DNA from: an uncultured Phycisphaerales bacterium
GTDB taxonomy: Bacteria; Planctomycetota; Phycisphaerae; Tepidisphaerales; Tepidisphaeraceae
Reading direction: 5' to 3'
Length of the DNA stretch: 64,000 bases
Assembly: GCA_963755915.1 (NCBI GenBank)
Contig: CAVWLP010000003.1
Location: 800,001 to 864,000, forward strand
Positions 2,599-8,516 of the stretch are shown here, piece by piece. Made by a program: the position numbers and the translations under genes. Position 1 is the first letter of the stretch, and each line of letters opens with the position of its first letter. The notes under the pieces are model-generated. The model saw only the letters and a list, made by a program, of their open reading frames with translations, did not search any database and was not told the DNA's origin.

Positions 2599-2603
2599 AT
2601 CGT

Positions 2604-2626
2604 GTAGCCGCCGAGCTTGCTCGGCG
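2604..2626 (+). repeat. GTAG-type REP hairpin
   Basis: GTAG followed by the palindrome CGCCGAGC-TT-GCTCGGCG. A related copy with compensatory changes lies at 5575-5621. Confidence 0.7.
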
Positions 2627-2800
2627 CTCTCCGCACTTTTTCCCCTGTCTTTCCCTGAGCTCGAAACTCCTCAGCGCCTGTCACGGGGCGCGCCAAAACC
2701 AGCCAGGGCGGGGCGCTTCAAAACCGGCCAATGTGCTGACGTATTCTATACCGCATCCGTTCTATCCGACGCAACTGTTCCTTGAGTTATTGGTCCCCGT

Positions 2801-3691
2801 TCACGCCGTCTGGCCGGCGGATACCCCCACATCAGAAGACAACGGCGGCTCTGTCACGGTGTCTTCCGGGGGGGAGCACCCTTCATCGCCGGCGGTACTC
2901 CGCCGTCCTTTTGGATTTGTCTTTTCCGGTGTCCCGGATTGGCCTGCCGTGAGCGAAGTCGAATGGCCCCCATGCCGAAGGCGGTAGCTCTTGCCGGTGA
3001 TGTTGATGATCGTGGCGTGCTGCAGGAACCGATCCAGAATGGCCGTGGCCGCCGGCACGTCGCCGATCAGCTTGGCCCAGTCCTCCAGTGGACGGTTGCT
3101 GGTCATCATCGTCGAGCGGTTCTCGTGCCGGCGCATGACGATCTCCAGCAGGCATTCGCCGCTGCGCCGCGGAAGCTGCTTCATTCCCATGTCGTCGATG
3201 ATAAGCAGATCAGGCTTGAGATACCGGGCCAGCGTCTTGTCCTGGGCTCCCAGATCCTCGTCGCCTAAAAAGTCGCGGGCCAGGTCGAAGATGGATCGGT
3301 ACAGGACCACCAAGCCGCTCTTGATCGCCTGGTGTCCGATGGCCTGGGCCAAAAACGATTTGCCCACGCCGGGCGGACCCAGCAAGAGCACGTCACGTTT
3401 GTCACGAATGAACTGGCCGGCGGCCAGATCGTGAATCTGTTTGCGTTTGATGGAGGTGTTGAAGGAGAAGTCGAACTCGTCGAGGTTTTTGGTGTCGCGG
3501 AACATCGCCGCCTTGACGCGCCGGCCGATCTGCCGGCTGGATCGGACGTTCAGTTCATCCTGAAGGATCAGTTCCAAAAACTCACTGTGGTCGAGCCGAT
3601 TGCCGGCCGCCTCGCTCAGGCGAACTTCAAGGCTGCTCGCCAGACCTGAAAGCCGAAGTTGCTTGAGCGTCTGCATCAACGAAGGTCTCAT
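2801..3691 (-). CDS. istB: IS21 helper ATPase IstB
   Basis: LDEFDFSF, Walker A GPPGVGKS, Walker B LLIIDD, TSN, AILDR and GKSYRLR motifs. Overlaps the istA stop. Confidence 0.95.
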   Translation of the reverse strand: MRPSLMQTLKQLRLSGLASSLEVRLSEAAGNRLDHSEFLELILQDELNVRSSRQIGRRVKAAMFRDTKNLDEFDFSFNTSIKRKQIHDLAAGQFIRDKRDVLLLGPPGVGKSFLAQAIGHQAIKSGLVVLYRSIFDLARDFLGDEDLGAQDKTLARYLKPDLLIIDDMGMKQLPRRSGECLLEIVMRRHENRSTMMTSNRPLEDWAKLIGDVPAATAILDRFLQHATIINITGKSYRLRHGGHSTSLTAGQSGTPEKTNPKGRRSTAGDEGCSPPEDTVTEPPLSSDVGVSAGQTA

Positions 3692-5373
3692 GGGGTGGAC
3701 TCCCTTCGGCTCTGCTCAGGGCAGGCCTGTAAAGGTTGTGCGGCAGGCAAAGCCTCCGCTTGGGTGATTGCGTCGCGTACGAACTGTCCGTAATCGGCCA
3801 GTCCGCGGATGATTGGATGTTCCTGAACAAACTCGAAGTGTTGTTGAACCGGCGCGCCGTTTTGGTGTTCGATGAGCTGCCGCAGGGAGCGCAGGTGATA
3901 CGCGCCATGCCCCAGAGCAATCTCGCAGGCTCGTTCCACGGCCGGTCGCGGCTGCTGATTGGCCAGCGACAGCAGCCCCATCAACACGCGCACGCCTTCG
4001 ATGCCGCGATGCTGAAGCATTGACTGCGCCCACTGCGTGGCGTGCGGCCCGATGCATTCGATCCGCTGGAGAAGCCAGGTCGTTCCACGCTCGATGCCGC
4101 TGATCTTCTCCGGCAGGATATGGGCGTCTTGCGTCGAGAACCTGCCCGGCGGACGCTGCGCGTGCAGAGCGATCGCACGCATCTTCTGATCGAACAGCCG
4201 GACCGTGCGCCCGTCCCACCGCGCCCAGACCCGCTGGCCCAAAAACTCCGGCGGGACCGAATAGTACGCCCCCTTGATCTCCACGTGCCCGTCGCGGTGA
4301 ACACTGCGCAACGCCTCGGTGAAAAGATCGAATCGCACCGGCGGCAGAGCCAACAGTGCCGGCTTCTCTACCTGCTCGAAGACTTCCTTCACCTGCCGCC
4401 GCGTCGTGCCGTGGATGCGCGTGTCGGCCACGCTCTTCTCCCACGTCAGCAGATGCGCGTTCTGATCCGAGAGCGAGGCGAATTGCCGGCCTTTGAGAGC
4501 ATTGCTCTTCACATAGCCGATGCCCCGCTCGATCTTCCCCTTGTGCCGCGGCGTGTACGGCTTGGTGGGCAGAATGGCGATTCCATAATGTTCGGCGAAC
4601 GACCGGACCTTGGGACACAACTCCGCCTCGAACCAGTCCGCCCGCGTCACCGCCGCGCGAAGATTGTCGATCACCAGCGCTGACGGCATCCCGCCGAAGT
4701 GCGTAAAGGCATTTTCCAGACAACGCAGAAAATCATCGGTCGTCTGCCGCTCCACCGCCTCGGCGTACCCCTTGCGGCTGTGGCTCAGCACAATGCGGAA
4801 GACCCAGGTTGCTTTGCGTTTGCCGTCAGGACCGACCAGGGGCGCACCCCGGCCGAAGTCCACCTGCCCTCGGCTCCCGGCTCGCATTCCATCCGGCGCA
4901 CGCTGTAATAGCTGCCGGCATAGCCGTGATCGCTGGAGATGTCTTGATAAATCCGCTGGGCCGTCAGCCCGGCTTCCAACTTCTGAACAATGACCTCACG
5001 CCAGGGCGATGCCGTACTGACCGACCCGATGGGCGCGCCGGATAACCCGGTGGGCGCGCTCTCCGAGCCGCCTGCGGCGAGCACCGTCGAGCCGCCTGCG
5101 GCGAGCACCGTCGAGCCGCCTGCGGCGAGCACCGTCGAGCCGCCTGCGGCGAGCACCGTCGAGCCGCCTGCGGCGAGCACCGTCGAGCCGAGGGGCGCGC
5201 TGGCCGGTTTTGAATCCGATCCGGGCACCGCAGGATCGCCGCCCGACAACCGGATGTGGCGTCCAACGGTCTCCCGGTGAACGCCGAGTTGGCGGGCGAT
5301 GTTCCGATTGGACCAGCCGCTGCGCAAGTGCCAAAATTGCTTGTACTTCCGCCATCTTGAGTTGATTGGCCAT
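3688..5373 (-). CDS. istA: IS21 transposase IstA (two frameshifts, ~5320 and ~4870)
   Basis: N-terminal HTH (MANQLKMAEVQAILAL..GWSNRNIARQLGVHRETV), DDE motifs QVDFG, VIDN and KGKIERG, C-terminal YYSVP. Split over three frames. Confidence 0.85.
5065..5190. repeat. 24-bp tandem repeat, 5.25 copies, inside istA
   Basis: GAGCCGCCTGCGGCGAGCACCGTC x5 plus GAGCCG. Encodes (STVLAAGG)n in frame. Confidence 0.95.
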
Positions 5374-5574
5374 CCCACCATTGGCTTGCGGCAACCGCCG
5401 AAAGCCAAGGTCGATAACCCAATCTCCTGTGCCTCAAAATGGCCGGTTTTGGCGCGCCCTCAATTGGCCGGTTTTGCGCCCCATGACACAGCGCCCCGCC
5501 GCCGAAAGCACCGGAGGTGCTTGGGCGGTACTCCGCGAAACGTGGGCCGGAGGCCGTCCCTAACTTCTCCCCGT

Positions 5575-5621
5575 GTAGCCGCCGTGCTTGACTTCGGTGA
5601 GCTGTCTCGAACCGCACGGCG
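5575..5621 (+). repeat. GTAG-type REP with a 24-bp element inserted in its loop
   Basis: GTAGCCGCCGTGCTT-[GACTTCGGTGAGCTGTCTCGAACC]-GCACGGCG, compared with the uninterrupted copy at 2604. Confidence 0.7.
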
Positions 5622-5864
5622 CTTTCCCGCCAAATACCTCAAGGCCGCCCCCGACCGTCACAAGGCCAGCCAAGTGCCACCGCGGCGGAACCGCGTTTTA
5701 TATTCGAGTCAACGCCTCTTCTCGTCCCCCAAACCATAACCGAAAATACTCTTCCTTCTTTTTACGATGTAAATCCGACCGCTTCGCTCCAATAAATGTG
5801 GGGAATCCCACTCATAAATTCTTCCTCTTTCTTGGCATCTTGGCGTCTTCTATGAGCCGAGCCT

Positions 5865-5870
5865 TGTCAA
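5865..5870 (-). promoter_or_regulatory. Outward-facing -35 box TTGACA at the IS110 3' end
   Basis: Perfect TTGACA on the minus strand next to the inverted repeat. In the circular junction GAAACT, a weak -10, would lie 17 nt downstream. Confidence 0.5.
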
Positions 5871-5879
5871 GGGGCGTTG

Positions 5880-6175
5880 ATCGCTCATGCGGTCGATTGG
5901 GTGAGCCTTCTATTCAGTGCTCTCGCCTGGCGGCGGGCCTATTCAACTGTACAAATGGCCAGCCCTATTCTTAGCGGCAAGCTTTGAAGCTTAAGACGCC
6001 AACCGGGGTCTGGCCTTGCTCATTCAACCTGCACGAACGCGTCAATTCCACTTCACTTCAACTCTACTCAATCCCCTGCACAGAAGACAACGGCTTTCTG
6101 ACACGGTGTCTTCCGGAGGGGAGATACTCCATCGCCTGTACCGACTTGTCGGGACAGTCATCGCCTTTTCGATTT
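5880..6175 (-). ncRNA. Putative bridge/seek RNA of the IS110 element (boundaries approximate)
   Basis: Stem GGCCAG..CCC/GGG.CUGGCC (5957-6015) encloses two guides matching the insertion site, separated by an AAGCU-UCAA-AGCUU hairpin. Confidence 0.8.
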
Positions 6176-7219
6176 TCAAGTGGCCGCCGTCAGCGATCGC
6201 TGGGGTTCTCTCCATCGGGTTCCGTCCCGCAGCATCGCCCACAGCTTCACCAGTAATCTCCTGGCTACCGCAACAATCGCGATCTTCTTGCGCTTCTCGC
6301 TGTCACGTAGAACCCTCTCGTACACGTCCTTCATCCACGTATTGCGATGAACCCCCAGCCACGCCACCTCCACCAGCAACTCCCGCAGCAGCGCGTTGCC
6401 TGCCTTGCTGATCCGCCCCTGGCGATCGCTGTCGCCGCTCTGCCAGCGCCGCGGCGTCAGACCCACGTAACATCCCACCTGACGTGCATTCTTGAATCGC
6501 CTGGGATCATCAATGATCACCGCCACCGCCTCGCTCAGCCGCGGACCAACGCCGGGCACCTCCTGCAATCGTTTCACCGCTTTGTTGGCCTGGCCCAACT
6601 CCTGAAGCTTGCTTTCGACAGTTTCGATCTGCTTCTCCAGGTGCTCCAGTTGCGCCACCTCACAACCGATCTGAAACAGCCACAGATCTTCCGCCGATGC
6701 GGCCGCTGCTTCCTTCCTCATTTCCTCCAGTCGCGCTTTCGTCCACGCCTTGGTCGCCGAGGGCAAATACAAACCCTGCCGCTCGTAGATTGATCGGATC
6801 GAGTTCTTGAGCGCCGTGCGGCGATCCACCAGGCCGTGTCTGTATTCAATCAATGAACGCCACTGCCGAACCGATGCCTTGGGCACGTGCACCGTCGGCA
6901 GCGAATCCATCTCCGACATCGCCGCCATCTTCAGCGCGTCTTTACGATCACTCTTCTCCTTCACCGTCTTCCAGCGCCAGCGTTCATCGTTGCCATTGGC
7001 CACCTGGACGGGAACATTGTTCCGCTCCGCCAGATCACAAACCCATCCTGCCGCCGGACCGGCCTCGATGACCAGTCGATCCGGACGCACCCGCTCGAGT
7101 AGTTTTTGCACCTCGTGGGCATTGGTGCCGATCTTGCCGAACGTTCTTTCTCCACCGCCGGTGACATAATCCACAAAAACGCTCTTGTTCTTTCCCAGGT
7201 CCAAAGCGAGAATTCGCAT
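6176..7219 (-). CDS. IS110-family DEDD transposase/recombinase
   Basis: ALDLG, VIEAG and KSDRKDA (DEDD tetrad); VPGVGP, YVGLTP..QSG (catalytic Ser region), ISKAGN, AVARRL. AAGGA RBS before the ATG at 7219. Confidence 0.95.
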   Translation of the reverse strand: MRILALDLGKNKSVFVDYVTGGGERTFGKIGTNAHEVQKLLERVRPDRLVIEAGPAAGWVCDLAERNNVPVQVANGNDERWRWKTVKEKSDRKDALKMAAMSEMDSLPTVHVPKASVRQWRSLIEYRHGLVDRRTALKNSIRSIYERQGLYLPSATKAWTKARLEEMRKEAAAASAEDLWLFQIGCEVAQLEHLEKQIETVESKLQELGQANKAVKRLQEVPGVGPRLSEAVAVIIDDPRRFKNARQVGCYVGLTPRRWQSGDSDRQGRISKAGNALLRELLVEVAWLGVHRNTWMKDVYERVLRDSEKRKKIAIVAVARRLLVKLWAMLRDGTRWREPQRSLTAAT

Positions 7220-7330
7220 TGCCGAGTCCTTTCTCAAAAAAGACGTTTGAGCGACCTACGCGGTACGCTCGTTCATACTTGGGGCATTTTGACCCCGTTC
7301 ACGTCCCGAGAAAGGCTCGGCTTCATAGTT

Positions 7331-7371
7331 TCTTGGCGGTTATAAGATTTTTAACCGCCAAGACGCCAAGA
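7331..7371. repeat. Remainder of the palindromic target of the IS110
   Basis: The rebuilt empty site TCTTGGCGTCTTGGCGGTTA is the exact reverse complement of 7352-7371 TAACCGCCAAGACGCCAAGA. Confidence 0.85.
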
Positions 7372-7404
7372 GCGCAAGAAAGAAGCAGATAAAAAGAAAT
7401 TTAT

Positions 7405-8516
7405 TTAGAGCGTGCGCTTAAACAGCAACGTCGCAAACCCCAACGCCAGCAGCGAAAAAATCGTCAGAAACGCCAGATCCTGCCAGATCGCTATGAGCCC
7501 TGTGTTCTTGAGGATCAGCTCCTTAAACCCATGCACGGCATACGTAAACGGATCGACCACCGCAATGCACTTCATCCAGGTCGGAAACGACTCCTGCGGA
7601 TAAACCGCCCCGCTCGGAAAATACAAAACCGTATTCAGCATCCCGAAAATCGCCCGCGGCACCAGCGGATCGTTCACCCGCACCATGATCAAAAACATCA
7701 TGCTGATCAGCGCCATCGACGTGGCAACCACCAGAATCATCAATTTCAACATGCGGACCGGATTAAGCGGGTCCGGTATACCCGCGATGAGCGAACCGAT
7801 GGTAACCAGAACCAGCCCCGCGATGATCGCCTTGGCAGCCCCCGCAAAGGTGAAACCAAGGATCAGCTCAACCTTGCGGATTGGCGTCACGAGATATCCT
7901 TCGTGCAGCCCGCGCGCCTTATCGTCGATGAAGATGATCCCACCGCCGATCATCGCCGAGACGAAGATCGACAGCGTGATGATCCCCGGCAAAAGGAACT
8001 GGATATACGGCACATACGGATAGACCTCCACGACGTTCAGCGTCGCATCCGCTGTCGTGCGCCAGGCACTTGCGGACCATTGTACGTCTGAAGCATCGAC
8101 CCAATACTCGCTTCCAGGGCATCGGATGAGAACTGGTCCGTGTTATCGACCACCACCGCGATCTGCGGATTGGCGCCCGCCAGGACTTTCCGCGAAAAAT
8201 TGGGCGGAATGTTCAGCACGCCCTGGATCTTCCCATCCCGCAAATCGCGCACCGCCACCGCATTGTCGGAGTAAGGGATGGTGTCGAAAGTCCGGGCATT
8301 CGCCGCGATCGCCTGGCACATCTCCTTGATCTTGATCGCCGGAACCCCGTGGTCCTGGTCCACGACCCCCACCTTCATGTTCTTGATCTTCCCCCCGAAC
8401 GCATACCCCAGCACGATGAGCTGCACCAGCGGCATGATCATCGAGACGATCATCAGCACCGGGCTGGCCTTAAATCGCCGAAGGTCGCGCTCGATGATGG
8501 CCCAGATTCGATGCAT
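7405..8516 (-). CDS. ABC-2 type exporter permease (frameshift ~8050)
   Basis: ORFs 8037-8516 and 7405-8031 are the two halves: VGVVDQD extracellular domain, then FLLPGII, YFPSGAVYP and DPFTYAV. Confidence 0.88.

Follow-up and report, generated by a model that had tools for sequence, protein, structure and literature searches.

Nine copies of one insertion sequence occupy the same point of a palindromic repeat in the genome of an uncultured Phycisphaerales bacterium, which raises the question of how the element recognizes this point. An earlier note on this DNA had proposed that a loop in the non-coding end of the element is the target-binding part of a guide RNA, programmed for the element's own insertion site. 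We analysed this proposal for the window, i.e. the whole stretch of 64,000 nucleotides from contig CAVWLP010000003.1 (positions 800,001 to 864,000), together with the remaining genome and related elements from other genomes and metagenomes. All coordinates below refer to the window. We consider it highly probable that ~5849-7334 is an intact, recently active element of the IS1111 type, the 3' end of which encodes a guide RNA with its target loop at 5957-6015.

The insertion sequence and its target repeat

The element and the adjoining target halves comprise the following features (left and right ends in transposase direction):

5849..7334, minus strand: IS1111-type insertion sequence (nine copies 99-100% identical, identical junctions, empty sites CTTGGCGTCTTGGCGGTTA)
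6176..7219, minus strand: transposase/recombinase gene, 347 aa, ATG at 7219, stop codon 6176-6178 (Pfam, PDB alignment)
5850..5865, minus strand: subterminal inverted repeat, right end (CTATG-AGCCGAGCCTT versus CTATGAAGCCGAGCCTT)
7312..7328, minus strand: subterminal inverted repeat, left end (comparison of the two ends)
5840..5849, plus strand: target half TTGGCG+TCTT in the flanking REP-like repeat (junction and empty-site comparison)
7331..7381, plus strand: other target half TCTT+GGCGG and the remaining REP-like palindrome, GGCGGTTA..loop..TAACCGCCAAGACGCCAAG (empty-site comparison)

The 347-aa frame matches PF01548 (DEDD_Tnp_IS110, the RuvC-like N-terminal domain, E 2.9e-10) and PF02371 (Transposase_20, the C-terminal domain, E 2e-24). 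Its C-terminal half aligns to the transposases of IS621 (E 1.3e-16) and ISCro4 (E 3e-18) in the PDB, with the motif GLTPRRWQSG opposite GLTPRRYESG of IS621 and ISCro4. For the C-terminal domain of the IS1111 group the motif GL-P----S(t)G is given in the excerpted text of PMC11187229, and GLTPRRWQSG agrees with it. The subterminal inverted repeats begin a few nt inside each end and match at 16/17 positions with one gap, a length within the 7-17 bp used as the IS1111 criterion. The non-coding DNA measures 326 nt downstream of the gene (5850-6175) versus ~110 nt upstream (7220-7330). Subterminal inverted repeats and a long non-coding region 3' of the gene are described as marks of the IS1111 group in parts of two studies (PMC11187229; PMC11208160). 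Assignment to the IS1111 subgroup is supported by the 3' non-coding end, the subterminal inverted repeats and the position of the top-strand match 5' of the bottom-strand match in the predicted RNA (see below).

The genome holds nine copies of the element at 99-100% identity. All nine are full-length matches with open frames, without internal stops and with the same ends. The claim that the element is intact is thus borne out by nine nearly identical copies, every one of which lies in the same site. An Rfam scan of 5000-8000 returned no family for the guide-RNA region; a snoRNA match inside the transposase gene stayed below threshold and was taken as chance.

In all nine copies the plus-strand left flank ends with ...CTTGGCGTCTT and the right flank starts with TTCTTGGCGGTTA..., while the element itself starts with CTATGAGCCGAGCC and finishes with GGCTCGGCTTCATAGT (plus strand). 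The 50-nt flanking repeat has many further copies around the genome. Element-free copies read ...CTTGGCGCTCTTGGCGTCTTGGCGGTTA-loop-TAACCGCCAAGACGCCAAGAGCGCCAAG... (13 loci listed, three of which are the same site on the other strand). Compared to empty sites, occupied ones contain the element and one additional TCTT. Since the empty sites carry a single TCTT, insertion adds ~1485 bp including an extra TCTT, and the ends of the inserted DNA are ambiguous within these 4 nt. Specificity for one site is seen in 9/9 copies, which lie at the same point of the REP-like palindrome. In its unoccupied form the 15-mer TTGGCGTCTTGGCGG is present 22 times in the genome (6.63 Mb), compared to 0.024 occurrences expected from base composition.

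The target (5820-5849 and 7331-7395) belongs to a genome-wide REP-like palindrome of tandem CTTGGCG units (TTTCTTGGCGCTCTTGGCGTCTTGGCGGTTA-loop-inverse). The unit CTTGGCG itself occurs 2025 times in the genome, and some copies of the repeat contain an insertion, GAGCGAAGCGGGCGG, in the left arm (loci L010-L022 examined).

The putative target-binding loop

The non-coding end between the stop codon and the right end of the element contains the following features:

5957..6015, minus strand: target-binding loop of a putative seek/bridge RNA with outer stem, two guides and central hairpin (sequence; consensus structure and covariation in 42 relatives)
5993..6002, minus strand: guide 1, UUGGCGUCUU, top-strand match, 5' in the RNA (complementary to AAGACGCCAA; changes with the flank in relatives)
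5978..5992, minus strand: central hairpin between the guides, AAGCTTCAAAGCTTG (5 pairs and a 4-nt loop)
5969..5977, minus strand: guide 2, CCGCUAAGA, bottom-strand match, 3' in the RNA (varies along with the flank among relatives)
6081..6136, minus strand: strong hairpin module, 3' of the transposase stop codon and 5' of the guide RNA, outside the guide loop (fold and genome copies)

On the minus strand 5957-6015 reads GGCCAGACCCCGG-UUGGCGUCUU-AAGCUUCAAAGCUUG-CCGCUAAGA-AUAGGGCUGGCC. The 5' part of the loop, GGCCAGACCCCGG, is the reverse complement of 6003-6015, and the 3' part, ATAGGGCTGGCC, is that of 5957-5968; every string that the earlier note had given for the loop is present at its coordinates. 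Guide 1, as DNA the reverse complement of 5993-6002 (TTGGCGTCTT), is identical at 10/10 positions to the plus strand at 5840-5849. Its complement AAGACGCCAA is the flank that adjoins the right end of the element in transposase direction. Guide 2, as DNA the reverse complement of 5969-5977 (CCGCTAAGA), pairs with plus-strand TCTTGGCGG at 7331-7339 at 8/9 positions; at the ninth position a U stands opposite G, i.e. a G-U wobble. In sense it corresponds to the flank CCGCCAAGA, which adjoins the left end in transposase direction. Both matches are the ones previously noted, down to the wobble, while the names "left" and "right" then given to the flanks swap once the element is read in transposase direction. 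Also in agreement with the original description, each segment addresses a different strand, and their overlap is TCTT. These letters are the 4-nt junction ambiguity found by comparing occupied with empty sites, such that the ambiguous letters are the letters covered by both guides. The 59-nt loop is identical in all nine element copies and occurs nine times in the genome.

Matches of this length could be a chance likeness, or the loop segments could be a captured remnant of the REP-like repeat in the element end; in either case they would have no guide function. The plus-strand loop TCTTAGCGG...AAGACGCCAA does resemble the repeat's own TCTTGGCGG..loop..AAGACGCCAA, and with a palindromic target such a likeness could come from recombination. 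In mononucleotide shuffles of the non-coding end the exact 10-mer was found in 25 of 200,000 cases, while the 10-mer together with the 9-mer (at most one mismatch) 8-30 nt downstream was found in 0/200,000, which speaks against chance. Among the relatives described below are elements with quite different, non-palindromic targets, and in these, too, the two equivalent positions of the scaffold are occupied by segments that match; the stems of this scaffold covary. Given these observations we regard a captured remnant or a chance likeness as extremely unlikely and retain the guide reading.

Folding of the whole 326-nt end resulted in -129.1 kcal/mol versus -104.1 kcal/mol in shuffles (z = -4.39). 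The minimum-free-energy fold retains the outer stem and the central hairpin that had been proposed. The two segments, which had been described as unpaired, are not fully so in this fold: UUGGCG of segment 1 pairs with CGCUAA of segment 2, such that the two guides are partly paired with each other. This self-pairing arises because the target is repetitive and palindromic, being built from repeated units. In the free RNA the target loop may according to this model be partly closed.

A strong structure would also be seen if the region were the structured 3' untranslated end of the transposase mRNA, acting as terminator or in stability or processing, with the protein alone reading the repeat. The z-score is compatible with such a role, as is the hairpin module at 6081..6136, which is common to unrelated IS21-like elements. 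A protein-only reader leaves unexplained, however, that the unpaired segments and not the stems track the flanks of each element, and that transposases which are 73-90% identical use different sites matching their own RNA (see below). We therefore consider this alternative very unlikely compared to a guide RNA.

The hairpin module reads CCGGAAGACA...TGTCTTCTG, is flanked by CCCC/GGGG and is also present near position 2830 of the window (loci L023-L030 examined). Its 49 copies in the genome fall into three variants that differ by compensatory changes near the loop. Nine copies lie in the copies of the IS1111-type element; two IS21-like elements account for nine and 31, which are located within the 3' end of their istB frame. 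Among relatives of the IS1111-type element the module is found in the non-coding end of 9/62, and it is absent from the elements of the congeneric genome G011. It looks like a 3'-end RNA module common to unrelated IS families. An IS21-like element (~2600-5410, minus strand) directly adjoins the IS1111-type element and holds one of the 31 hairpin copies in its istB end. It has an istA-like frame at 3688-4887 and an upstream frame at 4785-5408 with five tandem GGSTVLAA repeats.

Guides, flanks and stems in related elements

If the two segments are guides, they should change along with the flanks of related elements. The earlier note had itself suggested this test, and such a change is what was observed. 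Genome G001, from the same genus, contains four copies with a transposase 90% identical to that of the window, guide 1 UUGGCGCUCU and right-end flank AAGAGCGCCAA. Insertion is shifted outward here by one CTTGGCG unit within a repeat of the same kind, and guide 2, which is unchanged, still fits at 7/9 positions plus a wobble. Genome G011, also from the same genus, provided 15 matches with a transposase 73% identical. The 12 copies that were read carry UUGGCUU and AAGGCCAGA as guides, with ...CAGGCCAGA before and AAGCCA... after the element. A search for an empty G011 site for fixing the core gave a single exact match, CAGGCCAGAAGCCA, in unrelated context. Distant single copies (L065, L067, L034) have the same guide-flank pattern by eye; the guides of L074 are UUCGCGCCUU and CCGCGAAGA.

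A search of the contigs of the species genomes with the single protein yielded only 6 relative loci. In a metagenome search with an alignment a relative was encoded in 500 of 599 candidate stretches, of which the best 80 of 500 were kept. From 101 loci, both ends could be placed by end motifs in 82, and 77 had 12-nt flanks on both sides; removal of identical non-coding tails left 62 non-redundant elements. Relatives of at least E 1e-40 quality are present in 7/61 related genomes, and relatives at E 1e-70 or better in 3/401 sampled genomes of the phylum, the window's own genome being counted in both cases. The metagenome contigs with relatives come mostly from soil, peat and sediment.

Each RNA was scored by the longest exact match to the reverse complement of the right flank plus the longest exact match to the left flank, where the second match was required to lie 8-30 nt downstream of the first. 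As foreign flanks we used those of elements with targets differing at 6/16 positions or more, which provided 3182 pairings. Own flanks scored 14.0 nt on average (median 14) against the element's own RNA, foreign flanks 8.9 nt (62 elements). As the 62 elements are interrelated, these score figures are descriptive and are not probabilities. For 39/62 elements the own score was unreached by any foreign flank. In the other 23/62 it was not above every foreign flank, and some of these have mismatches or wobbles that break exact matches; five (L100, L117, L131, L138, L147) had own scores at background. In most elements the matches are 20-28 nt apart, in the order top strand then bottom strand, ~110-190 nt before the right end.

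To see whether the framing stems are conserved as well, we aligned loops whose own score was at least 13. There were 43 of them, and 42 were used, as L057 is a copy of the element of L033. Choosing loops by guide score is independent of the stems. The consensus from RNAalifold consists of the outer stem, an extension by two pairs and the central hairpin, with both guide regions unpaired. In 11 of the 13 consensus pairs changes on both sides were seen. Over the 13 pairs 90.3% of the cells were paired versus 76.1% in shuffles, and 90 cells were changed on both sides versus 25.2 in shuffles; in each case 0/500 shuffles were as high. Slid controls, in which the partners were moved by 1-3 columns, were paired at 29-52%. 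For the central hairpin, 93.3% of the cells were paired and 4 pairs were changed on both sides (42 sequences). The framing stems thus covary, with an excess of both-side changes over shuffles.

Second loop, expression and relation to known systems

The target loop is, judged from the relatives, only the target half of a longer predicted RNA of ~120 nt that has a second loop:

5898..5950, minus strand: second conserved loop, putative donor side (right-end tip match, stem covariation)
5938-5949, minus strand: 5' segment of the second loop, CAGUUGAAUAGG
~5918-5937, minus strand: GC-rich stem of the second loop, 86.8% paired
5906-5917, minus strand: 3' segment of the second loop, CUGAAUAGAAGG (RAUAG and 3 nt)
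5865..5870, minus strand: outward-facing TTGACA, possible -35 box (TTGAC[AGT] in relatives)

Downstream of the target loop all relatives read ...AGUUGAAU(A/G)GG, followed by a GC-rich stem with variable tip and by (C/U)G(A/G)AUAG NNN G.... The RAUAG motif of the second loop was not found in one of the 62 elements (L091). The 3' segment equals the right-end tip CATAG together with the next 3 nt, which agree by position in 61/61, 60/61 and 61/61 elements; permutation of the partners gave 0.74, 0.89 and 0.97 at these three positions. Among elements with three letters other than AAG, 11/12 match their second loop at all three. The GC-rich stem was paired at 86.8% with five pairs changed on both sides (40 sequences; L057 and the long L071 left out), a count that favours this reading since the stem was picked by eye. 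RNAalifold on a 157-column alignment returned only the central hairpin, without the second-loop stem, since this alignment is disturbed by gaps and by the variable hairpin. We assign the second loop tentatively to the donor side of an RNA with two loops, where it would read the tip of the right end. For a left-end guide in the second loop we found only likenesses of 4-6 nt (AGUU versus AACT), which were unconvincing.

According to the family data the core may be a dinucleotide, and the single nucleotide before it, which is encoded by the element, would be read by the second loop. From the aligned junctions we infer that the core is mostly AG in transposase direction, with GG or AA in some lineages, and that it lies one letter after CATAG, directly before AAACTATG. 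Under this scheme the core of the window element is probably CT at 5847-5848 and 7332-7333. The simple scheme does not fit L068 and L111. In L111 and L112 CATAG is followed by GGGGGG, yet the second loop reads AUAGGAGG. L068 has TCG after CATAG, in agreement with its own second loop but not with its own left junction.

Expression of the RNA was considered next to these structural data. A scan for sigma-70-like promoters in 5700-7500 of the integrated copy found 0, with 0.6 expected. The outward-facing TTGACA is conserved: 61/62 relatives have TTGAC[AGT] in the terminal 30 nt of the right end, and in 50 of them it is 15 nt from the tip. It is probably the -35 box of a promoter that becomes complete only at the junction of the excised circle. 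Circle-junction promoters are reported for the family in parts of two papers (PMC12288879; PMC13604230), and together with the outward TTGAC[AGT] they make transcription from the excised circle a reasonable inference. Two contigs from two RNA libraries overlap the region; such contigs can show neither transcription nor strand nor ends, DNA carry-over is possible, and stretches of the element that they leave uncovered carry no information. The first (208 nt) covers 5846-6044 and, having 9 differences, comes from a relative; the second (205 nt) is identical over 6012-6216.

The missing promoter-like site in the integrated copy (5700-7500) would also be in line with a real RNA belonging to an element that is now inactive in this genome, as a domesticated or decaying set of copies. 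Against such decay stand the nine copies with 99-100% identity, open frames and identical ends, and the 22 unoccupied targets that remain. An inactive set is thus exceedingly improbable, and an active element with a guide RNA remains our preferred reading.

For this element the following mechanism is proposed, in analogy to ISEc11 and IS621. The 3' non-coding end would give rise to a guide RNA (seekRNA/bridge RNA) of ~120 nt, which we infer to be transcribed, processed and bound by the transposase. The 5' guide UUGGCGUCUU would pair with one target strand and the 3' guide CCGCUAAGA with the other. Overlapping on the core, both guides would jointly specify TTGGCG-TCTT-GGCGG inside the REP-like palindrome, while the downstream second loop with AUAGAAG would read the right-end tip and the core. 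The DEDD recombinase and the RNA would then bring together excised circle and target and exchange strands at the core, with cleavage probably at CT within TCTT.

The closest described systems are the IS1111 seekRNA elements ISEc11, ISPa11, ISKpn4 and ISPst6 (Siddiquee et al. 2024, PMC11187229). As far as the excerpts of the literature describe them, these elements share with the window element a DEDD transposase of 330-350 aa, subterminal inverted repeats and a long non-coding region 3' of the gene. They also share two short matches to opposite target strands that overlap at the insertion point, the order with the top-strand match 5' of the bottom-strand match (PMC11187229; PMC11208160), and close relatives that were retargeted naturally through changes of the matches only. 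The window element differs in being only distantly related in sequence, in its planctomycete host and in its target, a REP-like palindrome of tandem CTTGGCG units. Among 72,556 plasmid records the best relative of its transposase is 40% identical, and no named IS was among the matches. RNA co-purification and reprogramming were demonstrated for IS1111 seekRNA elements (PMC11187229); for the window element RNA binding is predicted, and changed guides were seen as natural variants (G001, G011). A bridge RNA in the right end is predicted for 93% of IS1111 elements in the excerpted part of PMC11208160.

The bridge RNA of IS621 from the IS110 group (Durrant et al. 2024, PMC11208160; 8WT6 and related), as described in part of that work, likewise has two internal loops and a pair of target guides that reads both strands and overlaps a short core, and its target lies in a REP. 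In the window element, by contrast, the RNA is encoded at the other element end and the guide order is reversed. The inverted repeats of the window element are long, which is a further difference to IS621, and its second loop is recognisable only on the right-end-tip side. The catalytic C-terminal domains are homologous (E 1.3e-16). The plus-strand core TCTT of the window contains CT, which is also the reported core of IS621. ISPpu9 of Pseudomonas putida (IS110 family) inserts at one REP position and recombines at an AG dinucleotide, which is also contained in the window core in transposase direction, AAGA. ISPpu9 differs in that it belongs to the IS110 group, is without inverted repeats and has a bridge RNA thought to lie in the 5' leader; REP targeting was already reported for both IS621 and ISPpu9 (all according to the excerpted text of PMC12288879).

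A wider joint reading can be put forward tentatively, and we consider it rather unlikely to hold as a whole. In this reading the clade would be a natural allelic series, in which one ~120-nt scaffold and one ~345-aa recombinase are combined with dozens of guide pairs. The window element would retarget by slippage of one CTTGGCG unit (G000 versus G001). Its guides would pair with each other, and the RNA may stay closed until protein or target opens it; the RNA could address both arms of the palindrome, and the core would be a dinucleotide as suggested above.

The current picture of how such elements work is unchanged by these data. They add a compact IS1111-type element, a predicted RNA-guided recombinase, from the planctomycete phylum. 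To our knowledge, such elements are unstudied in this phylum. The 62 related elements constitute a natural guide-target table on one scaffold, which is useful for the pairing rules of a less-studied branch of IS1111 and for engineering candidates. For the host genome, a guide RNA of the predicted kind would account for the presence of nine identical elements in a single REP-like repeat; 22 further sites of insertion are predicted.
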